Below are positions 15,504 through 59,264 of a DNA stretch of 64,000 nt, piece by piece. The stretch comes from Candidatus Poribacteria bacterium (GTDB lineage: Bacteria; Poribacteria; WGA-4E; WGA-3G): the NCBI GenBank assembly GCA_965214095.1, contig OZ243938.1, positions 3,616,001-3,680,000 of the forward strand, given 5' to 3'. Position 1 is the stretch's first letter. The number at the start of each line of letters is the position of its first letter. The notes below the pieces were generated by a model. That model searched no databases. It worked only from the letters and a program-made list of their open reading frames with translations, and was not told the origin of the DNA. Made by a program: the position numbers and the translations under genes.

Positions 15504-15880
15504 TTGACAAACTTTGCAATTAGATGTATACTTAATATCGTGGCACAAATTCTTAACTGAATTTTTTAAGGATGCCAACATTTTTTTCAAATATACTTGA
15601 CAAATAATCATCAGTTGTGTTATAATTATATTATGTGAAGAGAGTTAATATATACATTATATTTTATATGTTTGTGTATTCCCTGATTACACACACTTTG
15701 AACTCTCCAACGCACTATATATTTTTACGAAACTCAGCGCAACACTTAATAAAGGTGAAACGCGCAGCAAATTTAATAAGTTGACATTTTTTTGTAACTT
15801 ATGTAGAATGGGGAACGTAGTTTAAAACGTAATACCGAGAAATTATATCGGTTGACATTATTTGTAACTTATGTTATAAT
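15504..15880 (+). promoter_or_regulatory. Four tandem sigma70 promoters
   Basis: TTGACA-17-TATACT (15504), TTGACA-18-TATAAT (15597), TTGACA-17-TAGAAT (15781), TTGACA-17-TATAAT (15852). The last two are near-duplicates. Confidence 0.7.
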
Positions 15881-16178
15881 TGATGACGTTATTATGAATA
15901 TATATCGGTTTGAAGATTTGGGAATGAAGGACGGGAACCTGAGTTTCCTAAAAGATATAGTTAAGAAACAAGCCGAACCCCAAATAAAACGGAGGACATG
16001 CCGCATTGGGAATGCACATGTCTGATACCAAAAGGTTAGTAGAATAGATTTAATCCCTGAATCTGTTCTTGATATTTCAAATTGTATTGTTGGGTGCGAT
16101 GACGTTTAGATAGATAATGTACGTGTCGCCCCTAAGTTAAACGTATTTTAGAAAATTTTATAAATAGGAGAACGAATA

Positions 16179-19100
16179 ATGAACCTGTCAAATCGATTGA
16201 CATTTTCTTTTATCTTTTCTGTTATACTCGTTGCCCTGTTTGCTGTTGCGCCTGCAATGGCACAGACAATCGAAGCTACATGGTCAACGGATCGGAATGA
16301 TGATAATACCGCTAACGATCCGGGTTGGAGCGTTACGATTGGCGGACTTGCTGCGAGCGATACCGTAACCGTTACATATTTAGATCCTGATGGTACCGCA
16401 GCAGCGGCGACCGGCACCCAAGCAGGTTTTGATGGCGTAGCAGCGGATGCTACATCTGATACAGGCTCAATCCTCGCTGGCATTGGTGATGTCATTGCAG
16501 TGCAAGTTGAAGCAGGTCCATCAGGAACCACAACAACGTATCAACGTGTAACTTTTCCAGCAGGTGGTCCTGGTGCTACACTTGCATCAACGACCTTGAC
16601 TAGGCTTCCAAAGTTAATGGAACTTGCCAAATCTGAATATTACGTGTCATTTGGTGGAACAGTAACCTTGACATTTGATTTTGCAGATGCGGTTGCTGAT
16701 ACGAATGGTGCCCCTGTTGCTGACTTACATATAAGTGACGTCTCAATTGCTGCTGCTACTGATTGGGTAGTTGATAGTGTTAGCGGAACGAATCAAGTAA
16801 CAATTCGTTCAACTCATGATCGTACTGATACTTCAGTTGGGACTACAGTGGATCTTAGTGCTGTTTATGCCCAACCGACTGATCCAGCCACAGATGGTCA
16901 AGCAACGCTCACTTATGATAATATGGCACCGACCGTAACTGCTGATTCTGTTAGTGTAGCTGCACCTTCTGGTTTCCCCACACCTCCTGATGGCGTATGG
17001 GATAGTGTTTTCATTCTCACTTTCTCTGTTTCAGATGACGGTACTGGTAGTGGATTACCAGATGAAAATCCTGTCAGAATTGACACAGACGAAACTAAAC
17101 TTGATGTAGGTGTTGTGGGTTTAGCTCCCGCAAGCGATGTTGTTGGTACTGAGTATCTTGTTAGAATAACACCAAAAGTTGGTCGTGCAACAACCGCTGG
17201 CGAAGAGGTTGTTATCACAATAGTACCTATTGATAAATCCGGTAACGAAGGTAGTATGGCTACTACAGTTAAGTTGGCGGAGAGTACTCCTCCTGATGCA
17301 TTGTATACGTCTGCGGCTCCAGCAAGTGGTGATGTAATGCAAGGCGACGAAATCACAGTGACCTTTGCTTCAGATCCTGGTGCTGTAACAGCTACGGGTG
17401 CCGCAATCTCTGGTACCGGTGCAACACGCACTCTTACGGTTGATGCTGCTCAGGCAGTAGGTGCACTTGAAATTGTACTTACCTGGGGAGAAAGTGGTCG
17501 ACAAGTGCTTAATTATACAGTGGTAATTCCAGCTGTGGCGTTTACTTCAGCAGCTCCAGCAAGTGGTGCGACTGTAGAACAAGGTGACACAATTACTCTG
17601 ACCTTTGCTTCAGATCCTGGTACTGTAACAGCTACGGGTGCCGCAATCTCTGGTACCGGTGAAACACGCACTCTCACGGTTGCAGATGATCAAGCAGCAG
17701 GTGCTTTGTCAATTGCACTTTCGTGGGCTAATGGTGGTTCTCAGGCACTTTCTTACACAGTTTCTGTGTTTGTTTCAGCAAATCCAACTTCACCATCAAA
17801 CATTATGATGGTTGAAATTCCTGCAGAATCTTATGTTGTTCTCGTTAGATCAATGAGTACTACTGAAGGCGCATTGCAATTTCCAGATGTTCCACCAGTC
17901 AATGGTACAGCTGTTGATGTCCAAGCGTGGAGCGATATGCCGGATCTATGGGACCTTTTCCAGAGAACCGCGCAGAATCGTGGTGGTGCAATCGTTTTGA
18001 GAAAGTCCGCCGATGCCGCTGATAACGATATGAAAAACGATGACGATGAGTATATCGGAATGTACGCCACACCGGCTGTCGGTAGTGTCGGTATCAGTGA
18101 AATTATGTGGGCACGTGATCTCGGACAGGGAACTGCAGCTCAACAGGCAGCAGGACAGTGGATTGAACTTCAGAATCTCAATGATAAACCCGTTAAGGTT
18201 TTGATCTATGCACAGAAAGGAAGTGAAGGACTTGTTAGCGGCGGACTCCTTGTTGATACAGCTGCTGGTGACTCACTTCTTGGTAACCCTGGTGGTATGG
18301 TTATTGATGCTGTCCAAAACATCAGAAACGATGGCAATCAAACGAATGATGGCTGGGATATTAAAGGTCAGGACGGTAACAGTGTAGAAGGTGTATCTTT
18401 CGCCTCAATGCACAGGATCCTGCCGGATAAACAGCCTGCATATACGCTTGCTCAGAATTATACGAAACGCAAGGGTACAAACGGTGGGCATTGGGCAAAG
18501 TCCGGCGGTGCATATCTCCGTAGCCAGACAACCCACACTTCAGGTGGCGTTACCAACGTGCCAATCCTTTTTGACTACAGAGGCACACCGGGTGATGTGA
18601 ATAACCGTACTGGTATAGATTTCCACACGAAAGCTGGAAAGACGAACCTTAGTGACGGTGCAGAATTGATCTTCAATGAAATCGCGAACCGTTCCGATGC
18701 TGATAAAGATTACGAATGGATTGAAATTCTGAACAGAACTGACTCTGTTAAGAGTTTGCGGTCGTACATTATAACCATGCTAACGAAGAAGGGGACTAAT
18801 GACAACGATCAGGATCAGGAAACAGTATTGTATCATTTCGCACATGATACAAATGCTGATGTTCCGGCAAATGGTGTGTTGCTCTTAGTTGCTTCAGACC
18901 CAGCCAAAGACGATGAGCATCCGCTTTCTGTCGGTTACAACGTTGATGAGAATGAAGAAGATCAGGTTCCTGGTTTCAAAGGTGATCATGTGCCACGGTA
19001 TAAGGTCGTTAACTTTGGAAGCAACGGTCTACCGAATGGTAACTTTGTATTAGTCTTGCGTAGACCTGATACAGTTGAAGGTCATGATGATGGCGGTAGA

Positions 19101-20651
19101 GGCAGAGCCGAAACCGGTAGGGCTGATTTTGATAAGATCGTTGATATGGCAGGATACGCTAACTTAAAAGCAACTAATTATCCGAATCCAGTATCCAACA
19201 CAAACTTGTGGCCACTGGATGATTTCCCAGCACCAGGTTATACCAACAATAACCTTGTGGAAAACACGGTCCATTCTCGAGCAGTTGTTAGAGACAATAA
19301 AGATGGCGACCGTCTTGGCACAGGTGCTACGGACAATGATAACAACAAATCTGCATATAGAGACGCAGGTTTTACCGGTATTGGGTATAGACGTGATGTC
19401 CCCAGAGATGGTAGATACGGCGGTACTCCGGGTTATCATGGTTCGGAAAAAGGTCTTGCCACAGATCTCACTGACGACGTAGTTATTAGTGAATTAATGC
19501 TCTCTACTGGTAGTTCGACCAACAGACAACTGCCACAGTGGATTGAAATCACAAATAACTCAGGTACGAAAACCGTTAATCTTTCAGCTGATTCAGGTTG
19601 GAGATTGGTGATTGAAACACCTGTTGATGCAATCAGAACCCTTAACTTTAAAGATAAGGGACAGGTTAAATACATTTACCCGAAGCAAACAATTCTAATT
19701 GTTGCTGGTAGTCCTACACGTAATGCACAAGCAGGTAGTGATCGATTATCGAACGACATCATCTTCAAGTCTGATCGGGTCTTCAATGTTCTCAGAGAAT
19801 ATGGTACAGGATTTACTGAGATTCAAGATGATCCTGAAGATCTTCGGGCACCACTGACGAAGAGTGACCGCTACCGTTTCTTGAACCAGAAACACTTCAA
19901 TATTAGGTTGATTGACGGTAAAGGGACTGTTGCGGATGAAGTTGGTAACCTTGATGGAAATCCACGCACTAACGATACGGCTGACTGGGATTACCCGAGT
20001 GGTCTTACCAAAGATGGCGACCGAACTTCGTTCATTCGTGTCTTTGATGAAGGACTGAAGGCGCGCCAAGCTGTCGGTAGTGATGCTGTTGATGTGCTCC
20101 CACTTGATGCTGTCCGTTCCGGAGCAGTTGAAGAAGGGAAACTTGATCTTAATGATTATGACAGTGTTATTCCTGCAGAATATGCATGGATACATGCTGC
20201 AGCACTTAACTTTGATTCCATTTATGTCAGACATACCTGGTATGGAAGTGAAGATGACTATGGTACCCCCGGTGCTCTTAAAGGTCAGGTGTTACCAGTT
20301 CAATTGTCATTCTTCCGTCCGACATTGGAAGACGGTCAAGTTGTTATCCGTTGGACTACCGAATCTGAACTTGACAACGCTGGATTTAATATCTATCGTA
20401 GTGAAGATCGTAACGGTGAGTTCACAAAAGTCAATGAACAGTTAATACAAGGTAAAGGTACCACCGCGGAACGTAGCACCTATAATTGGGTTGATACTTC
20501 AGCGAAACCTGGTGCAGTTTACTACTATCAAATTGAAGATGTATCTTTCGCAGGTGAGCGTAATCCGCTTACGACTACTAAGTTGAAAGGCTTGATCTCG
20601 GCCAAGAACAAGCTGACAACGACGTGGAGCGAATTGAAATCACAGAATTAA
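16179..20651 (+). CDS. Large secreted surface protein (Ig-like repeats, several lamin-tail domains, C-terminal KLTTTWSELK tail); S-layer-like candidate
   Basis: 1490 aa, signal peptide, ISEIMW/FNEIAN/ISELM..QWIE lamin-tail motifs, LPVQLS..WTTESELDNAGFNIYR module. Confidence 0.75.
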   Translation: MNLSNRLTFSFIFSVILVALFAVAPAMAQTIEATWSTDRNDDNTANDPGWSVTIGGLAASDTVTVTYLDPDGTAAAATGTQAGFDGVAADATSDTGSILAGIGDVIAVQVEAGPSGTTTTYQRVTFPAGGPGATLASTTLTRLPKLMELAKSEYYVSFGGTVTLTFDFADAVADTNGAPVADLHISDVSIAAATDWVVDSVSGTNQVTIRSTHDRTDTSVGTTVDLSAVYAQPTDPATDGQATLTYDNMAPTVTADSVSVAAPSGFPTPPDGVWDSVFILTFSVSDDGTGSGLPDENPVRIDTDETKLDVGVVGLAPASDVVGTEYLVRITPKVGRATTAGEEVVITIVPIDKSGNEGSMATTVKLAESTPPDALYTSAAPASGDVMQGDEITVTFASDPGAVTATGAAISGTGATRTLTVDAAQAVGALEIVLTWGESGRQVLNYTVVIPAVAFTSAAPASGATVEQGDTITLTFASDPGTVTATGAAISGTGETRTLTVADDQAAGALSIALSWANGGSQALSYTVSVFVSANPTSPSNIMMVEIPAESYVVLVRSMSTTEGALQFPDVPPVNGTAVDVQAWSDMPDLWDLFQRTAQNRGGAIVLRKSADAADNDMKNDDDEYIGMYATPAVGSVGISEIMWARDLGQGTAAQQAAGQWIELQNLNDKPVKVLIYAQKGSEGLVSGGLLVDTAAGDSLLGNPGGMVIDAVQNIRNDGNQTNDGWDIKGQDGNSVEGVSFASMHRILPDKQPAYTLAQNYTKRKGTNGGHWAKSGGAYLRSQTTHTSGGVTNVPILFDYRGTPGDVNNRTGIDFHTKAGKTNLSDGAELIFNEIANRSDADKDYEWIEILNRTDSVKSLRSYIITMLTKKGTNDNDQDQETVLYHFAHDTNADVPANGVLLLVASDPAKDDEHPLSVGYNVDENEEDQVPGFKGDHVPRYKVVNFGSNGLPNGNFVLVLRRPDTVEGHDDGGRGRAETGRADFDKIVDMAGYANLKATNYPNPVSNTNLWPLDDFPAPGYTNNNLVENTVHSRAVVRDNKDGDRLGTGATDNDNNKSAYRDAGFTGIGYRRDVPRDGRYGGTPGYHGSEKGLATDLTDDVVISELMLSTGSSTNRQLPQWIEITNNSGTKTVNLSADSGWRLVIETPVDAIRTLNFKDKGQVKYIYPKQTILIVAGSPTRNAQAGSDRLSNDIIFKSDRVFNVLREYGTGFTEIQDDPEDLRAPLTKSDRYRFLNQKHFNIRLIDGKGTVADEVGNLDGNPRTNDTADWDYPSGLTKDGDRTSFIRVFDEGLKARQAVGSDAVDVLPLDAVRSGAVEEGKLDLNDYDSVIPAEYAWIHAAALNFDSIYVRHTWYGSEDDYGTPGALKGQVLPVQLSFFRPTLEDGQVVIRWTTESELDNAGFNIYRSEDRNGEFTKVNEQLIQGKGTTAERSTYNWVDTSAKPGAVYYYQIEDVSFAGERNPLTTTKLKGLISAKNKLTTTWSELKSQN

Positions 20652-20681
20652 CTCAGGGATATTCTAACTAACCTACCCCCG

Positions 20682-20720
20682 AGCGGATGGCGAACTTCGG
20701 TTCGTTATCCGCTTTTTTTT
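20682..20720 (+). terminator. Rho-independent terminator
   Basis: AGCGGATGGCGAAC-TTCG-GTTCGTTATCCGCT followed by a T run. Confidence 0.9.
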
Positions 20721-20732
20721 ATAGATGCGGAA

Positions 20733-20947
20733 TGTCTGAACCAGGATTCACAGGATTTTTAGATTTCCAGGATTTTCCGTGTCAAGTTTGTTTTGAAAAG
20801 TTGACATACTGTCGAGACAAACATTAATGTACACTTGACAAAGAGACACCAATAAGGTAATCCTGTAAATCTGTAAATCCTGTGAATCCTGGTTCAGACA
20901 GTTCCCAATAAGGTAATCCTATAATCCTGCTAATCCTGGTTCAGACA
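20733..20947. repeat. Family-B element (168 bp, 20733-20900) plus an extra half-site
   Basis: Terminal IR TGTCTGAACCAGGATTCACAGGATT with ~9-bp periodic CAGGATT units. Confidence 0.85.
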
Positions 20948-20994: not shown

Positions 20995-21372
20995 ATGAAA
21001 GAAGAGAAATTAACATACCAAATCATCGGCTGTGCTATGGAGGTACATAGGAAGCTTGGTAACGGTTTTCAAGAAGTGATCTATCAACGTGCTCTTGAGA
21101 TTGAATTGGAACGCGCAGGAATTGGTTTTGAACGTGAAGTAGAATATCCTATCTATTATGATAAGATCAATATTGGGTCAAGAAGAGCAGACTTCATTGT
21201 TGGAGAAAAGGTGGTAATAGAATTGAAGGCACTCATTGCGTTAGAAGATGTTCATATAGCACAAGCCAGAAACTATCTGGAGGCATTTGATTTGGATATC
21301 GGTCTATTGATTAATTTTGGCGGGAAGAGTTTGGAGCATAAAAGGTTGTTCAATCCGAACAGAAATGATTGA
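20995..21372 (+). CDS. GxxExxY protein (PD-(D/E)XK nuclease superfamily)
   Basis: IIGCAMEVH..LGNGFQEVIY, RADFIV...VIELK, GLLINFG. Confidence 0.93.
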   Translation: MKEEKLTYQIIGCAMEVHRKLGNGFQEVIYQRALEIELERAGIGFEREVEYPIYYDKINIGSRRADFIVGEKVVIELKALIALEDVHIAQARNYLEAFDLDIGLLINFGGKSLEHKRLFNPNRND

Positions 21373-23487: not shown

Positions 23488-24974
23488 CATAAGCGTCAAT
23501 TTAGTGATTTTTTGCTGCATTTTCAAGGTGTTCTAATGTTGTGTCTCTATTAGCACGTCTCTCAATGTAGCACCCATTTTGGAAAGCGTGTTTTATTTCA
23601 TCAAAAGTTTGCCGAAAAGACATTATAGACTTGCGGAAACCTATTGCAAGTGTGCGTGCGAAGGTGCTAATAAGTTCTGCTGTTTTTGTTAGACTATGTT
23701 TTAGACATCGCCAGCCGACCCTTAACATGATCCAGTGCCGCATAATTGCGACGATGAGTTTTGCATATAACTCACATAAGATTCTATATGGCTTGTCGCT
23801 ACGGGAGGTATCAACTTTTCCAATGCTTTTGAAGCACTTGAACATCAACTCAATCTGCCATCGGATGCGTGCGACAGCACAAATCTGTTCAGCAGTCAGA
23901 TGGTCTACTTCTATATTAGTAATGTAGATATTCCATCTTGCGAGCTGAAGTCGTTTTGGTGAAGGTTTCGTCTGCTTCCGCTTCGCACGATGTTTTATCT
24001 CCTTAATACGCTGTTGGTTTTCTGTTTCTGAAAGTCTTTGAACAACTAATCGTGCTTTGAGACGCTTGTTTTTACCTATAAAGATTTGTTTGTCCTTGAA
24101 GTTATCAGAACCCTTCTTGAGCCATTTTAGCAAGCAAAAAGGGTCACCTGTTTCATCATAGAGAAAACACTGGACTTTGTAGCGTGATATCCAAAAGACG
24201 TTTGCATCGGAAAGTCTTTTGAAGGTATCAAGTGAATAATAGCCGAGGTCTGCGAGGCGCAAACTGCCGGCGGGTAGCATATCAATCTGCTTTTCAATAG
24301 TGCTATCAGCGGTGATACCATTGGTCAGTTCAAAGTGTTCAAAAGTGCCTGTGGCACTATCAAAACGCAGGTGGAGTTTCACGGCAGCTGTGTTCGGTTT
24401 GTTCTTTTTGCTTCCACCTTCCCAAGTTTCGTGGAGCACATCAGGGAGTGTAATCCAAGAACTATCTTGTAAATAGACACCAGTGAACTTTTCAAGGAGC
24501 GGAAGCGTTTGCGGGTCGGCAGAAATAACCTGGGAAGCAGTAGCATCAAGGATAACTTTCAGGGTCTCTGCTGCTTCAGATGTAAATCGTTGTTCAATGG
24601 CTTGTCGTGAGATTGAAATCCCCAGTACACCAGCAGTTTGCGCAAGTTGTGTATAGGTGGCATCCGGGTTTTCTAACCAAGTCCAAATAAGTATTTGAGC
24701 AAAACGACTACCGTTGAGTTTACAACTTCTTTTGACAAAACCTGTATTGAGAGCTGCATCATTGGCTATAGTTGTAAGAATATGTTGCATTTCTTTGGGA
24801 ACTTGTGATAATGTATTCATTGGAAACACCTCTTTGTAGACCATAATAACTCTATATCTACATTATATATGAGGTGTTTTCATTTTTACAGAAGTTTTAT
24901 TTCATAATTTATACTTTCTCTGATTAAAAGTTGACACTTATCGGTCTTAGTGCATCCTTAAATTGACGCTTATG
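23488..24974 (-). mobile_element. IS4-family insertion sequence, 1487 bp
   Basis: Perfect 16-bp TIR CATAAGCGTCAATTTA; flanked on both sides by GTTCGGTTAGGAAACCGAAC (23468-23487, 24975-24994). Confidence 0.88.
23501..24844 (-). CDS. IS4-family DDE transposase
   Basis: QDSS, LADLGY, RWQIELMFK (YREK-like; the Y position is A). The stop codon overlaps the TIR. Confidence 0.9.
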   Translation of the reverse strand: MVYKEVFPMNTLSQVPKEMQHILTTIANDAALNTGFVKRSCKLNGSRFAQILIWTWLENPDATYTQLAQTAGVLGISISRQAIEQRFTSEAAETLKVILDATASQVISADPQTLPLLEKFTGVYLQDSSWITLPDVLHETWEGGSKKNKPNTAAVKLHLRFDSATGTFEHFELTNGITADSTIEKQIDMLPAGSLRLADLGYYSLDTFKRLSDANVFWISRYKVQCFLYDETGDPFCLLKWLKKGSDNFKDKQIFIGKNKRLKARLVVQRLSETENQQRIKEIKHRAKRKQTKPSPKRLQLARWNIYITNIEVDHLTAEQICAVARIRWQIELMFKCFKSIGKVDTSRSDKPYRILCELYAKLIVAIMRHWIMLRVGWRCLKHSLTKTAELISTFARTLAIGFRKSIMSFRQTFDEIKHAFQNGCYIERRANRDTTLEHLENAAKNH

Positions 24975-53906: not shown

Positions 53907-54211
53907 TTGACTTATAACGTATATTTATATATAATATGTCATATACTTCATATTAAGACATAGAAAATGTAAAATATATATAAAAATTAACTTGCTTAAG
54001 TTTATATTTTATATTATCATTATTATGTGTTGAATATATGATTTCAATTTTCGTAAAACAAACCGATACCTTACAAACAGAATATAAAGGTATTGGCAAG
54101 TGAGGACACCAGAGAAAAAGATATAAGTTCCATAACGGAGTCCCATTTTTATAACTTAATAATAAGACAATAACATTTTAATTTGACATTATATTAATTT
54201 TATCTTATAAT
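53907..54211 (+). promoter_or_regulatory. Two sigma70 promoters
   Basis: TTGACT-17-TATAAT (53907) and TTGACA-17-TATAAT (54183). Confidence 0.7.
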
Positions 54212-54499
54212 TAATATACTAAACTTTGAAAACCTTGCAAACTGGCGCGAATTATTGGGATAGATAGAAAACATATTCGCAAATGCCACACGCAAGGAAA
54301 AGCATCAATAACCCCGATGTAGGTAAAAATAGATGGATAGATTAGGTGAGTTATTGATTGAGATAGGTAAACAGGAAACCCCTGTTTAAACACAATATTA
54401 ATAAAAATTATTAATATTTACGATTGGAAGATTAGATTAACAGGAATTAATCCCTGAATCTTAACTTGAATTTAATATTCCTAAAAGGAGAAATAAGTA

Positions 54500-57400
54500 A
54501 TGCGATTGTCAAATAAATCGACATTTTCCTTAGTATGTTTTATTTTTCTACTGGCATTCGTCGCGCTGCCTGTGATGGCACACGGACCAGATGCTACGGA
54601 TGTAGGTCCACATACTCATCCAGTAACGGAGGCAGTTGCGGCAAACAACCAGGCCGATCCTCCTGTATTAGAAGTGCCTATACATAATGCTCACCCTGTA
54701 GTCACATCAATTGTTCTAAAGGGTGATAATACGCGTGGCACAATGGCTGCAGTTATAACAGATGACGATGTCAATGAAAATCAATTCACCTTAGTTGTGA
54801 CTTTTGATAGAGATATTGTGGGTACAGCTGCAACTACTGTTGTTCCTGATTTTGTTGCTGGTACTCGTACGGACGGTGCAGCTTTAGAAGGTGCTGATCT
54901 CACTACTACCATCCTGCAAGTTGACAACACACCAGCTTATATAGCTACATCTGATTTTGTTATCAATCGTGTAATGGGTAATGATGCTCAGTATGAAATA
55001 GTCGTTACACCTGGGACAGTTCCGAATGCCGACACCGCAGACACAGCTACGAACGATGATACCTTGACATACAGAATACAAGTAAATGCTAATGTCGTGT
55101 TTAGTTTGCGAACAACAGAGATTGTAGAAACGAGTGTTACTCCAGTGACTGTTGATGGTGGTGGAAATCTGGCATCAGATGTCTACGTGTTCACATTGGT
55201 CAGTGAGTTGCCACCCGCACCCACGCCTCCAGACACCACAAAACCCAGTTTTACGGTTGCCATGTCACCAGCCAATATGAGCGAACTTGAAGCAGGTAGC
55301 ACGGTTCAGTTTACACTTACTGCTTCTGAGGCTTTGGGAACTGGAAATAATGAGCTTCTGGCGACTGATGTTGTAGGCACAACGAATGTTGCATCACAAT
55401 CATTTGTTAAAGTTACAAACACCCAATACGTCGTGATTGTAACACCTACGGATCTTACGCAGCCAATAGTTCTTACAATTCCAGCGGATTCTGTGTTTGA
55501 TACAGCTGATACCCCTAATGGCAATGCAGAGCAGGTGATTACGTTTACGCCCGAAGATACTGAAGCTCCAACAGTCACTATTGAATCTGCTCTAGTGGAA
55601 ACAGGTGCTGATGCGGGTAAGATTCGTTTCACATTCACATTTAGTGAAGCAGTACAAGGCTTTGATGAAGATGATCTTATAAGAGGTAGTGGTGTTACGT
55701 TAGCAGGAAATCTTGTTCCTAATGACGACAATACAGTGTTTACAGTGCTTGTAAACCCAGCCCCAGCGGGTTCTCCGACATCACTGACACTTCGAGCTGG
55801 AGCGGTTAAGGACGGTGCTAATGAATTAGTAGGGGATCAACTGCATACTTATGTACCAGTTGTTCCGCCAGATCCCCCAGGTCCAGATCCGACAAATCCG
55901 ACCACACCAGCGAACATCTTTAGTTTCTCTGTTCCTGCAAATTCTTTCGTTATACTTGTGCGGAATGCGAATGCTCTGGTAGGAGGTTCTCCTCCGACAT
56001 CACTGAAAAGCCGTTTTGCTGGAATTGTGGATATAAACAATGCACGTGTTATATCAGATGCCAAAATCATAGAATGGTCAGCTATGCCAGACTTAGCCGA
56101 ACTCTTTGATAGAGGTGCTCCTGGCGGTGGCGGTGCACTGGTCTTGAGAAAGTCTGTTGGTGATACTGCTGCACCTGCCGTTGGTACAGTCGGTATCAGC
56201 GAAATCATGTGGGCTATGGATGCTGGATACATTGGTCAAACAAAGGCAAGAGATACACAGTGGATTGAAATTGAAAATCTCAATGCTACTGCTAAGACCG
56301 TTTTGATATATGCCCAAACAGGTGCTCAGATTACTGATTCCAATAAAGTAGTTACGAAAACACAAGCCGACGACACAATCCACGGGAACCCCAGTGGTAT
56401 GGTTGTTGATGTGATGACAAACTACTTTAACGGTAGTAGCCGTGGCTCTGCTGGTTGGGATGTTGTAGGCAGTAACGGTAGTAGCAAAACAGGTATTGAT
56501 TTTGTGTCAATGGCACGAAAAGGTACCTTTGATCTGGCCAGCAAAGATGGCGATCAATACAACAAGCGATATGTCAAAACAGCCGGAAGCACAAAAAGTT
56601 CAGATGGTCGTTCTTCAGGTTCTTGGGAAGCTTCTACAGTCCGTTATGATAGAGATACAACGGATAAACCGGCAAGTGTAACAACTGCTGTGCCAGCAAC
56701 TTTTGATTACTTGGGCACACCCGGACGCGCAAATACATTCTCAGTCTCAACACATCTTACAACAGCAGGGAGAACTAATCTGAATGATACACCTCCCGTG
56801 CTCTTTAATGAGATTGGTAACCGTTCTGACTCTGATAAGGCTTATGAATGGATTGAAATTCGTAATACTACGGGTTCACCTGTGAGTCTAAAGTCATATC
56901 GTATTACCACGATAACAGCAGTGGATACAGAAAATGTTCTGTATACCTTCCCACATGATAAGGCAGCAGATGTTCCTGCAAACGGTGTGTTGTTATTATT
57001 AGCATCAGACCCCGCAGATGATACTGATCATCCTATAGCTGTCGGTTACAATGTTGATAAAGTTCCAGAAGATCAACCATTAGGTTCAATAGGTGACCAT
57101 ATACCACGTTATAAGGTTACACCATTTGCTGGTAATGGTATTCCCAATGGTAACTTTGTTTTAGTGTTGCGTAGACCAGATACAGTTGAGAATAAAAATG
57201 AAGGTGGAAAAGGACCTTCTGAAACCGGTAACAATGATCTTGATAAGATTGTTGATATTGCAGGACACCATTCAAATTTGAGTAAAGCAAATTATCCTAA
57301 CGCAGTATCCAGTACCAGTTTCTGGCCGCTACACAATTTCCCCGCACCTCAATTTGGCAACAACAACCTGACGGAAAACAAGGTCCATTATCGGAGAAAC

Positions 57401-58723
57401 GTTAAATCCAATAAGGACGACCGTCTTGGTACAGGTGCTTGGGACAACGATAACGGCAAATCTGCATATACAACCGTAGGGTATACAGGTATCGGATATA
57501 AACGATGGGTGCCCCGTGATAACAACAGATATGGTGGTGATCCCGGTTATCATAGTCCTTTAGTTAATCTAACCACTGATGTGGCTGATGATGTAACTAT
57601 TAGTGAGATTATGTTGTCTACGGGTGATAATGGAAGACTACCGCAGTGGATAGAACTTACTAACAACTCTAAGACCAAAACGATTAACCTAAAATCTGAA
57701 GGTGGATGGAGATTAGTAATTGAAACACCTGGCGATGCTATCAGGACCCTCAACTTTAAAGATTGGGATAATGGCAATTACATTTATCCAAATCAAACTG
57801 TTCTAATCGTAGCAGGAAGTGTTGGTCGTGGTGCACAAGCAGGTAGTGATCTACTTCGGAGCTCTATTGTCTTCAAGGCTGACCGTGTTTTCAACGTCCT
57901 ACGTGAATATGCAAGTAATTTCAGTGAAATCGAAGTAGACGGTGAAATGGTCAAGAATGACCGATATCGTTTTATCCATCCACAAGCATTCAACATCAAG
58001 TTAATTGATGGAAAGAATAATGTAGCGGATGAAATCGGTAACCTTGATGGCCGTGGACGTACAAACGATACACCTGCTTGGGAATACCCAGATGGTCTAA
58101 CGAAAGATGGCTACAGAACATCCTTTATCCGTGTATACGATGAAGGTGTTGCACGTGCAGCCGTTGGTAGTGATGCCGTTGATGTACTCCCAGTGAATAC
58201 AGGCGATACCAGACTTGAACTCAATGATACTGATAGTGTTATACCTGATGAATATGCTTGGATCCGAGCTGAAGTATTGAACTTTGATTCCATTTATGTG
58301 AGACATACGTGGTATGGAAGTGAATCAGACTTCGGAACACCCGGTGTACGTAAAGGTCAACCACTACCCGTTTCATTGTCATTCTTCCGTCCAACATTGG
58401 AAGACGGTAAAGTTGTTATCCGTTGGACTACCGAATCTGAACTTGACAACGCTGGATTTAATATCCTTCGTAGTGAAAGCCGTAATGGTGAGTTCACAAA
58501 GGTCAACAACCAGTTGATTCAAGGTAATGGTACCACAGCGGAACGTAGTACATATAAATGGGTAGATACTTCAGCCAAACCAGGTGCAGTATACTACTAT
58601 CAAATTGAAGACGTATCCTTCGCTGGTGAGCATAATACGCTTACGACTACTAAGTTGAAAGGCTTAATTTCTGCACAGAACAAGCTGACAACACAGTGGG
58701 GCGAATTGAAAGAGGTACAATAA
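54500..58723 (+). CDS. Large secreted surface protein, paralog of 16179-20651 (Ig-like plus lamin-tail domains, KLTTQWGELK tail)
   Basis: 1407 aa; the C-terminal two thirds align by eye with the first paralog. Confidence 0.75.
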   Translation: MRLSNKSTFSLVCFIFLLAFVALPVMAHGPDATDVGPHTHPVTEAVAANNQADPPVLEVPIHNAHPVVTSIVLKGDNTRGTMAAVITDDDVNENQFTLVVTFDRDIVGTAATTVVPDFVAGTRTDGAALEGADLTTTILQVDNTPAYIATSDFVINRVMGNDAQYEIVVTPGTVPNADTADTATNDDTLTYRIQVNANVVFSLRTTEIVETSVTPVTVDGGGNLASDVYVFTLVSELPPAPTPPDTTKPSFTVAMSPANMSELEAGSTVQFTLTASEALGTGNNELLATDVVGTTNVASQSFVKVTNTQYVVIVTPTDLTQPIVLTIPADSVFDTADTPNGNAEQVITFTPEDTEAPTVTIESALVETGADAGKIRFTFTFSEAVQGFDEDDLIRGSGVTLAGNLVPNDDNTVFTVLVNPAPAGSPTSLTLRAGAVKDGANELVGDQLHTYVPVVPPDPPGPDPTNPTTPANIFSFSVPANSFVILVRNANALVGGSPPTSLKSRFAGIVDINNARVISDAKIIEWSAMPDLAELFDRGAPGGGGALVLRKSVGDTAAPAVGTVGISEIMWAMDAGYIGQTKARDTQWIEIENLNATAKTVLIYAQTGAQITDSNKVVTKTQADDTIHGNPSGMVVDVMTNYFNGSSRGSAGWDVVGSNGSSKTGIDFVSMARKGTFDLASKDGDQYNKRYVKTAGSTKSSDGRSSGSWEASTVRYDRDTTDKPASVTTAVPATFDYLGTPGRANTFSVSTHLTTAGRTNLNDTPPVLFNEIGNRSDSDKAYEWIEIRNTTGSPVSLKSYRITTITAVDTENVLYTFPHDKAADVPANGVLLLLASDPADDTDHPIAVGYNVDKVPEDQPLGSIGDHIPRYKVTPFAGNGIPNGNFVLVLRRPDTVENKNEGGKGPSETGNNDLDKIVDIAGHHSNLSKANYPNAVSSTSFWPLHNFPAPQFGNNNLTENKVHYRRNVKSNKDDRLGTGAWDNDNGKSAYTTVGYTGIGYKRWVPRDNNRYGGDPGYHSPLVNLTTDVADDVTISEIMLSTGDNGRLPQWIELTNNSKTKTINLKSEGGWRLVIETPGDAIRTLNFKDWDNGNYIYPNQTVLIVAGSVGRGAQAGSDLLRSSIVFKADRVFNVLREYASNFSEIEVDGEMVKNDRYRFIHPQAFNIKLIDGKNNVADEIGNLDGRGRTNDTPAWEYPDGLTKDGYRTSFIRVYDEGVARAAVGSDAVDVLPVNTGDTRLELNDTDSVIPDEYAWIRAEVLNFDSIYVRHTWYGSESDFGTPGVRKGQPLPVSLSFFRPTLEDGKVVIRWTTESELDNAGFNILRSESRNGEFTKVNNQLIQGNGTTAERSTYKWVDTSAKPGAVYYYQIEDVSFAGEHNTLTTTKLKGLISAQNKLTTQWGELKEVQ

Positions 58724-58897
58724 GGTTAAATTCAGGGATATTTAACCAGTTCTCCTAACAATAAGGAAACTGCAGAATCCTTGTTGGAGAGAATTTTCTA
58801 AAATACACCCATTGTAGGAAACTATTGTTACTTCCCGATGCAATAGTTTCCTAATTGGGCTAAGTTTAACTAACCTAACCTATCCAACTAACCTATC

Positions 58898-58935
58898 AAA
58901 ATAGAGACTTGCTCCCCCTGCAAGTCTCTATTTTT
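58898..58935 (+). terminator. Rho-independent terminator
   Basis: AAAATAGAGACTTGC...GCAAGTCTCTATTTTT. Confidence 0.88.
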
Positions 58936-59016
58936 GTTTTAATCCTTTGTCCCACACACCGGTAGGTGCGATTTAGCGTGCTTCTAGGTCCGGTAGGTTC
59001 GGTTAGGAAACCGCAC

Positions 59017-59187
59017 CATAAGCGTCAATTTAGCATCCTTCCAAGTACCGGTAGGTTCGGTTTCCTAACCGAACCGGCTTTGTGCCAAATACCTTTATAG
59101 AGGTTCTCGCACAGGTTCCGTGCGGTTAGGAAACCGCACCTACCGGTCTGGGGAAAACGCCTAATTTACACTAAATTGACGCCTATG
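59017..59187 (+). mobile_element. Full-length 171-bp IS4-type MITE
   Basis: TIRs as in the IS at 23488; GTTCGGTTAGGAAACCGCAC on both flanks. Confidence 0.88.
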
Positions 59188-59264
59188 GTTCGGTTAGGAA
59201 ACCGCACCTACCAGCCTGGCGTCGGCACAAAGCCGGTTCGGTTAGGAAACCGAACCTACCGGCA

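Follow-up and report, generated by a model that had tools for sequence, protein, structure and literature searches.

A candidate long-range helix joining leader and 3' end in surface-protein messages of Candidatus Poribacteria

Could the two ends of a giant bacterial message pair with each other and loop out everything between them? The question is raised by a stretch of 64 kb (here called the window) from a MAG of Candidatus Poribacteria, a sponge symbiont (genome G000, 94% complete), in which two paralogous genes for very large surface proteins are flanked by complementary sequences (Table 1). A first, sequence-only reading proposed that the leader and trailer of gene 1 act as a long-range closing stem, or as inverted recombination sites. 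Based on the analysis completed here, the message ends probably pair, judging from a complementarity of about 40 bases and from the same design in many related genes. The full model, in which a single mRNA pairs its leader with its 3' end in an RNA helix that loops out the whole ORF, has in our judgement an even chance of being right; helix formation in cells, action in cis and a role are what we infer from it.

Table 1. Features of the two paralogous loci, in window positions
Feature	Position	Strand	Description
Predicted promoters of gene 1	15504..15880	+	four tandem sigma-70-like sites 5' of gene 1 (consensus scan)
Gene 1 leader arm	16033..16085	+	from RNAduplex and ortholog comparison
Gene 1	16179..20651	+	predicted secreted protein of 1490 aa; signal-peptide-like N-terminus, lamin-tail domain
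Gene 1 trailer arm	20629..20674	+	stop codon (20649-20651) with the 7 codons before it and 23 nt of 3' UTR after it
Predicted intrinsic terminator of gene 1	20681..20722	+	15-bp stem and T run
Predicted promoter-like site of gene 2	54183..54211	+	12/12 consensus positions
Gene 2 leader arm, helix 2	54335..54353	+	GGAUAGAUUAGGUGAGUUA; z = -4.6, 0/30 shuffles; wider duplex region 54320-54383
Gene 2 leader arm, helix 1	54443..54470	+	core AUCCCUGAAU (54450-54459), then c-UUAACUU
Gene 2	54500..58723	+	paralog of 1407 aa; lamin-tail domain, Big_12
Gene 2 trailer hairpin H1	58724..58747	+	stem GGUUAAAU/AUUUAACC, loop UCAGGGAU; directly 3' of stop codon
Gene 2 3' UTR, structured middle	58748..58864	+	two further hairpins, one with compensatory changes
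Gene 2 trailer arm, helix 2	58865..58897	+	C/A-rich UUUAACUAACCUAACCUAUCCAACUAACCUAUC, immediately 5' of terminator
Predicted intrinsic terminator of gene 2	58898..58934	+	

The two arms of gene 1 (16033-16085 and 20629-20674) are predicted by RNAduplex to form an interrupted helix of 39 bp at -38.5 kcal/mol, as against -14.3 and -5.2 kcal/mol for the local folds of the arms. The paired blocks are 16033-16046, 16054-16060 (core UCCCUGA), 16065-16073, 16076-16080 and 16082-16085 in the leader, and 20629-20632, 20634-20642, 20644-20648, 20653-20666 (core UCAGGGA) and 20668-20674 in the trailer, with A20667 bulged. Folded alone, the leader gives a local hairpin with AUCCC in its loop, and the leader arm is near-identical in four orthologs (L003, L036, L040 and L110). 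The sequence-only reading had placed the leader pieces exactly (AGGTTAGTAGAATA at 16033-16046 and ATCCCTGA at 16053-16060), and its trailer pieces TCAGGGAT (20653-20660) and TATTCTAACTAACCT (20660-20674) are found where it put them, except that T20660 was used in both, so that one of the pairs it claimed cannot form. The nested order of the pairings holds, and the helix reaches further inward than had been described. At the level of consensus predictions, the arms do lie between the promoters and the terminator: the promoter-like sites (15504-15532, 15597-15626, 15781-15809 and 15852-15880) match 11-12 of 12 consensus positions, and the last -10 hexamer ends at 15880. The gene 1 product has no match in NCBIfam, and its C-terminal ~140 aa are conserved.

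Such pairing is well beyond that of shuffled flanks. The duplex of the gene 1 leader (15885-16178) with the trailer (20652-20682) has an energy of -27.7 kcal/mol, compared with -17.4 ± 3.0 kcal/mol after shuffling, and none of 200 mononucleotide shuffles reached it. The 8-mer ATCCCTGA occurs seven times in the 64-kb window (1.68 expected; no shuffle of 100 reaches seven), and four of the seven copies flank the two paralogs. Genome-wide it shows no enrichment (66 + 74 copies in 5.2 Mb), and the signal is therefore positional. Among 47 two-motif loci, which were chosen by motif, the median energy of the 70 x 75-nt duplexes is -27.6 kcal/mol, and shuffled sequences average -15.8; the duplex was reached by none of 50 shuffles in 32 of these loci, and by at most two of 50 in 44.

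The cores of gene 1 were said to recur around the paralog, and so they do, with ATCCCTGAAT at 54450-54459 and ATTCAGGGAT at 58730-58739. In gene 2 too, the arms lie between a predicted promoter and a predicted terminator, and the leader arm of helix 1 lies about 48 nt, and ends about 29 nt, before the start codon. A second nested helix (helix 2, -29.6 kcal/mol) is predicted outside the first, and is seen at z < -2 in 14 of 34 loci. The stem of the trailer hairpin H1 survives a paired U/A insertion (L002, L027 and L028) as well as an A-to-G change that gives G.U (L011 and L013), and in the alignment of the whole gene 2 3' UTR, 17 of the 36 predicted pairs have changed on both sides. Because the 3' UTR has compensatory pairs and its trailer hairpin tolerates G.U replacements, a function at the RNA level is suggested.

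Homologs were surveyed across the genus, in which 40 genomes yielded 77 clean homologous loci. Both motifs are recognized in 44 of them, the trailer motif alone in 15, the leader motif alone in two and neither in 16. Orthologs and paralogs throughout the genus keep the complementarity, and the design persists while the proteins of the family diverge to 36-64% identity. Predicted leader-trailer duplexes attain -42.4 kcal/mol in one locus (L055), and -49.3 kcal/mol in a metagenome locus (L206), where shuffling gives -33.5 ± 4.5 and none of 100 shuffles reaches the observed value. The flanks of the core differ between gene classes, for example GUUCU (leader) with AGAAU (trailer) in the gene 1 type and UUAAC with GUUAA in the gene 2 type, with L055 and L206 standing for two further classes. 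All four retain complementarity, as would be expected if a long-range closing helix were functional.

The same survey bears on whether the leader arm is a functionless remnant, left when the 3' end of the gene was once duplicated in inverted orientation, and kept similar by gene conversion that homogenises the 5' and 3' modules of the paralogs. Over about 55 nt the leader does resemble a diverged, inverted copy of the 3' end of its gene, coding sequence included, and modules shuffled among paralogs would give trailer-only and leader-only genes. However, at protein identities down to 36-40% neutral decay would be expected, and the arms are instead among the best-conserved non-coding positions; the decay of one arm is mostly accompanied by decay of the other (jointly in L033, L048 and L035, with L069 keeping its leader arm beside a decayed trailer), and complementarity is kept in the four classes despite their different flanks. 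We therefore regard such a relic as very improbable. The sequence-only reading had proposed a test of leader-trailer covariation. Within a class, covariation is not significant, which counts against the helix model and lends the relic some support: when trailers of the short class were re-dealt among its leaders, 46 of 500 re-deals paired at least as high a percentage as observed and 59 of 500 had at least as many double-change pairs, and the core, being invariant, is uninformative on pairing. Individual compensatory changes were nevertheless found. In L051 the leader has changed from GUUCU to AUCUU and the trailer from AGAAU to GAGAU with five of five pairs retained, and in L033 and L048 one G-C pair has become U-A.

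Two features were missed by the sequence-only reading: in most paralogs the trailer motif is located in the loop of a local hairpin, and it occurs without a leader partner in the 15 trailer-only loci and in G056, a more distant genome in which about 13 paralog trailers contain AUUCAGGGAUA and leader complementarity is absent (z of 0.1 to -1.5 in five pairs). The trailer motif thus has a role independent of a leader in cis. It may be that the primary element is UUCAGGGAU(A), the motif that follows the stop codon and mostly sits in a hairpin loop, and that partners in trans read it, with the anti-motif carried by some paralog leaders and by at least one separate small-RNA-like element; pairing would then occur mainly between molecules (a 3' UTR with another paralog's leader or with a small RNA), and would coordinate the surface-protein family. 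A paralog with the leader motif is present in every genome that has trailer-only genes, neither side of the core varies, as would be expected of a shared recognition module, and in wide windows a leader and its own trailer show no advantage over foreign combinations, the own pair ranking first in only two of 17 rows. In addition, a structured element of 131 nt (G000:C1:72168-72298), with UAUCCCUGAAU in an unpaired stretch, a terminator at its end and compensatory changes, matches the gene 2 type trailer hairpin at 19 of 20 positions. However, this element exists in only six of the 40 genomes; within a gene, the sequences flanking the core in leader and trailer change together from class to class, something that a module acting purely in trans would not need; and kinetics would favour intramolecular pairing. 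Windows of 90 nt give a modest gain for own pairs (-38.2 kcal/mol, against -36.5 within the class and -32.1 between classes). Searches of Rfam gave no match at gathering score in the 64-kb window and only sub-threshold matches for the small-RNA-like element. All in all, we hold such a network to be unlikely, at roughly one chance in a handful.

In a variant of this network an RNA-binding protein could read the loop. The loop UCAGGGAU of the hairpin at 58724-58747 presents GGA, in a form that we take to resemble the CsrA/RsmE SELEX consensus. As a CsrA/RsmE-bound hairpin it is not supported, for PF02599 has no match in the 94% complete G000, and that neither a CsrA nor an Hfq gene was found speaks against a network in trans. 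A different precedent is provided by CopA/CopT and RNA I/RNA II, antisense kissing-loop pairs formed by two molecules from opposite strands of one locus. As in these, mirrored hairpins with complementary loops can nucleate a pairing that then extends into the stems, and the gene 2 leader matches the loop and 5' arm of the trailer hairpin. However, the elements studied here are 4.5 kb apart on one strand, in one predicted transcript.

The arms might also act as DNA, as sites or substrates for inversion, deletion or cassette exchange that would switch the surface protein on and off or change its variant. In fimS, hin and the Bacteroides invertible promoters, a surface structure is controlled by a DNA segment lying between short inverted repeats, and here such repeats flank a segment encoding a surface protein: as DNA, leader and trailer elements are reverse complements, their palindromic arms enclosing an asymmetric core, and the 5' and 3' modules are conserved around gene bodies that vary greatly. 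A contig that joins 16078 to 20629, and omits the 4550 nt inside the helix, was found in two DNA-like runs, of three covering the region, at a depth of 43.4 (main contigs about 122-145) in one and 19.8 (about 80-94) in the other. This joint may equally belong to another strain's or a paralog's contig that matches the conserved ends only, and inverted repeats are expected to yield inversions rather than deletions. Unlike in the known switches, the segment would be a whole 4.5-kb gene and not a promoter, and no serine or tyrosine recombinase adjoins gene 1 or gene 2 in Pfam scans of the neighbours (hydrolase, SDR, ThuA, PD-(D/E)XK nuclease, peptidase M17 and IS4-type transposase), among which the IS4-type transposase (23501-24844) is the only mobile gene. 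An inverted state was recognized in none of 50 loci, with a downstream opposite-strand promoter in 0/50 and an upstream opposite-strand terminator in 1/50, and an assembled leader-trailer junction in none of the 40 genomes. The longest perfect block is probably too short for homologous recombination, and the arms are placed exactly in the UTRs, overlapping the stop codon. The invertible or exchangeable cassette offered by the sequence-only reading is thus weakened, and recombination is in our estimate quite improbable.

If the arms pair as RNA within one message, what would the helix do? Leader and trailer helices around 16S and 23S rRNA, the stems of rRNA operons, enclose non-coding RNA and are substrates of RNase III, and RNase III-type processing is the usual fate of such stems. 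The helix of gene 1 is similarly long (39 bp, interrupted, where at least about 20 bp would make a flank helix rRNA-like), is formed from the flanks of a multi-kilobase RNA and would loop out the functional part. However, what would be looped out here is an ORF that is translated, and PF14622 revealed no RNase III in any of the 40 genomes, nor did PF14622, PF00636 or TIGR02191 in G000 (controls positive in 8-9 of 14 reference genomes). Since RNase III would be needed, the proposed analogy is weakened, and processing of the helix would be without an obvious enzyme. The other suggestion was translation that depends on a full-length message; folding does not predict this to work by exposing the ribosome-binding site: freeing the arms leaves the predicted accessibility of the site unchanged (0.46 vs 0.46; 0.43 vs 0.47), so a simple translational switch is not supported. 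What stands of the closing stem is thus a conserved, non-chance complementarity inside a predicted transcript, in classes with different flanks, without these two readings of its role.

Closer parallels are known among bacterial mRNAs. One is icaR of Staphylococcus aureus (Ruiz de los Mozos et al. 2013, PMC3868564), in which, as a review describes it (PMC7821165, section 7), leader and 3' UTR of the same mRNA interact in cis: UCCCC in the 3' UTR masks the Shine-Dalgarno sequence, RNase III cuts the duplex, and the motif is absent from S. epidermidis. The design found here would likewise pair leader and 3' UTR in cis through a C-rich/G-rich core of about 7 nt (UCCCUGA with UCAGGGA). It differs from icaR, as reviewed there, in that the leader carries the C-rich strand, at 30-120 nt upstream of a ribosome-binding site whose predicted access is unchanged, in that the 40 genomes gave no RNase III gene, and in that a helix of about 40 bp, not a short motif, is kept across a genus and a paralog family. 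An icaR-type anti-Shine-Dalgarno mechanism is not supported, because the leader arms end upstream of the start codon (by 93 nt in gene 1 and about 29 nt in gene 2) and predicted Shine-Dalgarno access does not change. In hbs of Bacillus subtilis, according to Braun et al. 2017 (PMC5737220), a 14-bp helix of the 5' and 3' UTRs protects an RNase Y site in a short, highly expressed mRNA, modulating ribonuclease access with a stabilising effect. The predicted Poribacteria helix is also a long-range 5'/3' UTR helix but, unlike hbs as described there, it has about 39 bp, spans ORFs of 3-6 kb and takes in the last codons and the stop codon.

In our best reading, leader and 3' end pair within one message, in an interaction of the icaR/hbs type between 5' and 3' UTR that is larger and better conserved than those examples. 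Once a full-length message of about 4.8 kb was made, the arms could come together in a helix of about 40 bp with interruptions, nucleated by the invariant core (leader AUCCCUGA(AU) with (AU)UCAGGGAU just 3' of the stop codon). Gene 1 would represent a compact form with a single continuous helix, and gene 2 a split form, in which helix 1 pairs with the loop of the post-stop hairpin and helix 2 with the C/A-rich stretch just 5' of the terminator. The last codons and the stop codon are part of the trailer arm, so that each terminating ribosome would have to open the helix, which would couple its state to translation. By analogy with hbs, stabilisation through modulated ribonuclease access is the mechanism we judge most likely. 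The design, as far as the genomes reveal, is hosted by a family of genes for secreted lamin-tail/Ig-like surface proteins in one genus of Candidatus Poribacteria, and there it may serve post-transcriptional control of mRNA fate, via message protection or a closed-loop state.

At the two ends of gene 1 (ORF 16179-20651, 1490 aa), the arm pieces named in the sequence-only reading were recovered at exactly the same positions (see the table), T20660 being counted in both trailer pieces. The complementarity extends farther inward than had been noted there: 39 bp, in blocks of 14, 7, 9, 5 and 4, form between 16033-16085 and 20629-20674, with a predicted energy of -38.5 kcal/mol (RNAduplex), while the segments folded singly reach -14.3 (leader) and -5.2 kcal/mol (trailer). 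Because the predicted duplex reaches 20629, the trailer arm takes in the final seven codons together with the stop. The duplex of 15885-16178 with 20652-20682 has an energy of -27.7 kcal/mol versus -17.4 +/- 3.0 kcal/mol for shuffled sequences, none of 200 shuffles being as strong, and the leader-trailer complementarity of gene 1 is thus borne out. The core 8-mer occurs seven times in the window against 1.68 expected, and four of the seven copies lie beside the two paralogs, genes 1 and 2. It is not enriched genome-wide, and therefore the signal is its position.

Positions of the leader and trailer pieces, of the predicted transcription signals and of a small-RNA-like element
Feature	Coordinates	Strand	Remarks
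Gene 1, four sigma-70-like promoters	15504-15880		upstream of gene 1; consensus-grade; consensus prediction
Gene 1, leader piece AGGTTAGTAGAATA	16033-16046		
Gene 1, leader piece ATCCCTGA	16053-16060		
Gene 1, trailer piece TCAGGGAT	20653-20660		immediately 3' of stop codon 20649-20651
Gene 1, trailer piece TATTCTAACTAACCT	20660-20674		
Gene 1, intrinsic terminator	20681-20714		15-bp stem; consensus prediction
Gene 2, promoter	54183-54211		12-of-12 consensus; consensus prediction
Gene 2, terminator	58898-58934		consensus prediction
131-nt small-RNA-like element	G000:C1:72168-72298	minus	outside the window; loci L191-L197; directly after a DUF1028 gene

Between 15881 and the gene 1 start codon, a consensus scan of the coding strand detected nothing promoter-like. 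Two of the four tandem near-consensus promoters upstream of this gene lie within a repeated unit of ~30 nt, GTTGACATT(T/A)TTTGTAACTTATGT..., and the tandem arrangement suggests, judging by sequence, very strong transcription. Inverted copies of a CAGGATT/AATCCTG-rich repeat (GTCTGAACCAGGATT...) are found at 20726-20947 on both sides of a promoter-like stretch, which is upstream of a small PD-(D/E)XK (PF13366) gene at 20995-21372; the same repeat is also located 3' of the terminators in several homologs (L032, L036 and L040). Downstream of gene 2, a cluster of REP-like hairpins (GGTTCGGTTAGGAAACCGAACCTACCGG and variants) occupies 58950-59260. Contig C2 of this genome, G000, (32 kb) has a G+C content of 64% versus 41% for the main chromosome; it is perhaps a contaminant of the assembly or a foreign element.

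In the proteins of gene 1 and gene 2 (ORF 54500-58723), a lamin-tail domain and Ig-like or CopC-like parts accompany an N-terminus that resembles a signal peptide, and neither protein has an NCBIfam name. Three paralogs, gene 3 being upstream of the window, are located inside 66 kb of the genome. A C-terminal domain of ~120-140 aa (ending ...LTTTWSELK...) is common to 17 ORFs of G000 that are otherwise of different architecture; in genes 1 and 2, neither Pfam nor NCBIfam assigned a family to this region, and the domain may be an undescribed sorting or anchoring domain. Among the 17 ORFs, the trailer motif is confined to members of the lamin-tail family. Homologs exist in 21 of 24 and, in a wider set, in 36 of 39 other genomes of the genus, and although protein identity across the family falls to 36-64%, the arms rank among the best-conserved non-coding positions.

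For comparison of the gene ends, 80 homologous loci were taken from 40 genomes and, together with the three paralogs of G000 itself, gave 83 loci, of which the 77 with a complete upstream region were counted (six were left out because they lay at a contig end or their 5' end was open). With the leader motif taken as CCCTGAA no more than 400 nt upstream and the trailer motif as CAGGGA no more than 60 nt past the stop codon, both motifs were found in 44 loci, the trailer motif alone in 15, the leader motif alone in two and neither in 16, the loci being related and not independent. In the compact form, that of gene 1 (W_g1, L003, L036, L040, L042, L051, L057, L060, L071 and L110), the leader motif lies ~113-146 nt 5' of the start codon and the trailer reads UAA-C-UCAGGGAUAUUCUAACUAACCUAC, with the terminator next. 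In the split form, that of gene 2, the leader motif lies ~43-73 nt 5' of the start codon and the trailer opens with a hairpin, GGUUAAAU-UCAGGGAU-AUUUAACC. Between this hairpin and the terminator come ~200 nt of structured 3' UTR and then a C/A-rich stretch, CUAACCUAACCUAUCC. Evidence for the hairpin stem comes from an insertion of paired U/A in L002, L027 and L028 and from an A-to-G change yielding G.U in L011 and L013, and 17 of the 36 pairs predicted in the 3' UTR alignment are changed on both sides. The core of an integron attC site has the reverse order of the trailer hairpin arms GTTAAAT...ATTTAAC; given this order and a length of only 24 nt, attC was rejected on inspection. A UCCCUGAA-loop hairpin at G000:C1:2409822 lies inside a 311-aa ORF and was set aside as chance.

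The leader core of gene 2, AUCCCUGAAU-c-UUAACUU, complements the loop and 5' arm of the trailer hairpin (-24.2 kcal/mol), and a second predicted helix (helix 2), in nested order, would join 54335-54353 to the C/A-rich 58867-58885, with 17 of 19 positions matching (-29.6 kcal/mol). The z score of helix 2 was below -2 in 14 of 34 loci; in this set were a few loci of the compact form, to which the test does not meaningfully apply. A metagenome search with a single protein gave no match; one with an alignment of 14 proteins gave 25 loci, four of them (L199, L202, L204 and L206) with both gene ends and both motifs, L199 and L202 being alike at both ends.

Besides the conservation of the arms, several observations speak for selection on the complementarity. 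Across 47 both-motif loci, the median energy of the restricted duplex is -27.6 kcal/mol versus a shuffle mean of -15.8 kcal/mol, and 32 of the 47 are matched by none of 50 shuffles, values that mostly measure the flanks, since the loci were selected by motif. Both arms are degenerate in L033, L048 and L035. Changes that preserve the pairing were recognized in L051, in which the leader changed from GUUCU to AUCUU and the trailer from AGAAU to GAGAU, keeping all five pairs and altering two codons by the trailer change, and in L033 and L048, in which one G-C pair became U-A. Classes with different flanks still pair (L055, -42.4 kcal/mol), and the metagenomic locus L206, with unlike flanks and the stem CGGUUAU/AUAACCG, reaches -49.3 versus -33.5 +/- 4.5 kcal/mol, a strength seen in none of 100 shuffles. 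Other observations speak against selection. In the compact class (13 sequences and 43 pairs), 86.7% of the cells pair, with a double change at six pairs; slid controls were 29-46% paired, a comparison biased toward the structure, which came from one of the sequences. Covariation within this class was not significant, re-dealt trailers equalling the observed figures in 46 and 59 of 500 trials. Duplex energies in wide windows, a 17 x 17 matrix dominated by noise, showed no own-pair advantage (own partner first in two of 17 rows), and a 14 x 14 matrix of 90-nt windows gave -38.2 kcal/mol for own pairs, -36.5 within the same class and -32.1 for other classes, a modest class effect. The core is invariant and speaks neither for nor against pairing. 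In L069, which lost its stop codon, the trailer subsequently decayed and the leader arm is kept.

Read as DNA, the leader and trailer elements are reverse complements of each other, and the arms might alternatively act at that level, as in the invertible cassette that the sequence-only reading had also proposed. This proposal looks improbable: no recombinase was found beside gene 1 or gene 2, no opposite-strand promoter was found downstream in any of 50 loci (by detectors that are strict and insensitive), and a two-motif gapped pattern revealed no assembled leader-trailer junction in 40 genomes. In the contig record from two of the three covering DNA-like sequencing runs, both of the same study, 16078 is joined directly or indirectly to 20629. 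In one run this contig has a depth of 43.4 and the main contigs ~122-145; in the other, the depths are 19.8 and ~80-94. The contig thus has roughly one-quarter to one-third of the main depth, and it is absent from the third, low-depth run. The joint skips the gene 1 ORF, the 4550 nt left out being those enclosed by the predicted helix. The joint may reflect a deletion allele, some other strain's or paralog's contig whose match is limited to the conserved ends, or an artefact. An IS4-type DDE transposase gene (PF01609; 23501-24844, minus strand) is located 3 kb downstream of gene 1.

The 15 loci that have the trailer motif but no leader motif carry UUCAGGGA(U/A) past the stop codon; the majority fall in a subfamily of ~1010-1070 aa whose N-terminus differs and whose leader is short. 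In the more distant Poribacteria genome G056, the trailers of ~13 paralogs keep AUUCAGGGAUA and then UAACCUAC, and in five pairs from this genome the leaders showed no complementarity to their own trailers beyond that of shuffles (z = 0.1 to -1.5). The 131-nt element has an intrinsic terminator and a conserved structure, in which a long outer stem is combined with an inner hairpin that shows compensatory changes, and carries unpaired UAUCCCUGAAU / GUUAAUAUCCCUGAAUUU, the anti-motif of the trailer loop. It belongs to no Rfam family, and a covariance model found it in only six of 40 genomes of the genus. Because the trailer motif can stand alone and the 131-nt element bears its anti-motif, the core pair behaves as a recognition module, which may act between molecules too, the trailer being read by the leaders of other paralogs, a small RNA or an RNA-binding protein. 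The trailer loop presumably resembles the CsrA/RsmE consensus; a CsrA site was dropped as the main reading, as no CsrA gene was found in G000.

At a shared position ~330-400 nt upstream of the start codon, each of the five G056 paralogs examined (L180-L184) has a poly-C tract of differing length (~13 to 26 C), a candidate for slipped-strand phase variation. A long (CT)n tract is present upstream of L078 in G009, another genome.

The best reading is, in our estimate with an even chance of being right, a conserved long-range RNA helix between the leader and the 3' end. The observation first made on the arms is confirmed and its interpretation partly supported, the analogy with an rRNA processing stem being weakened. 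Processing of rRNA stems involves RNase III, of which no domain was found in G000 with three models (PF14622, PF00636 and TIGR02191) or, with PF14622, in any of 40 genomes of the genus, and cleavage of the helix by this enzyme was rejected for that reason. Neither Hfq (PF17209) nor CsrA (PF02599) was found in G000; for all three proteins, the controls were positive in reference genomes. If real, the absence of RNase III, Hfq and CsrA represents an unusual RNA-processing repertoire. A ribosome-binding-site switch was also rejected, as folding predicted the same accessibility with the arms free or blocked (0.46/0.46 for gene 1 and 0.43/0.47 for gene 2).

The long-range helix would hold the leader of a very long and probably very highly transcribed message against the stop-codon region of that message, and its role may be mRNA protection or a closed-loop state, as in hbs (PMC5737220). 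Because the helix overlaps the stop codon, every terminating ribosome would have to melt it on each pass. A bolder and rather improbable version is a closed-loop bacterial mRNA, in which a genus-conserved helix of ~40 bp joins the leader to the stop-codon region of mRNAs of 3-6 kb for abundant surface proteins, in an organism apparently devoid of RNase III. Opening of the helix would then report completion of the giant ORF, so that ribosomes might be handed back to the nearby start site, or only messages translated in full might be protected, and the shared core would let the 3' ends of paralogs and the small RNA contact the leaders of other paralogs. If true, this could allow a sponge symbiont to express its surface variants in a coordinated or mutually exclusive way.

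According to the excerpted text of a review (PMC7821165), the known interactions between bacterial 5' and 3' UTRs are few (RNAIII/hld, icaR and hbs) and involve 7-14 paired bases: 7 nt in RNAIII/hld; the UCCCC anti-RBS motif of icaR, which S. epidermidis lacks and at which RNase III cuts; and 14 bp in hbs, which protect against RNase Y in a 3' UTR not conserved in close relatives. As there described, these cis interactions are of the same kind as the one predicted here, but the present pairing is about three times longer, encloses ORFs of 3-6 kb and overlaps the stop codon, and, in contrast to icaR and hbs, it is conserved family-wide and genus-wide. RNase III, moreover, is apparently absent. 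A limited literature search found no description of this leader-trailer design, nor, among the matches listed for Poribacteria, a paper containing 'lamin tail'.

The proteins encoded by these genes are likely major surface proteins of Poribacteria, and contact with the host is probably mediated by them. Dozens of such genes in 40 genomes of an uncultured sponge-symbiont genus provide natural variants for studying communication between the two ends of a bacterial mRNA. Because RNase III, Hfq and CsrA are seemingly missing from this genus, the rules of its RNA regulation may be unfamiliar ones.
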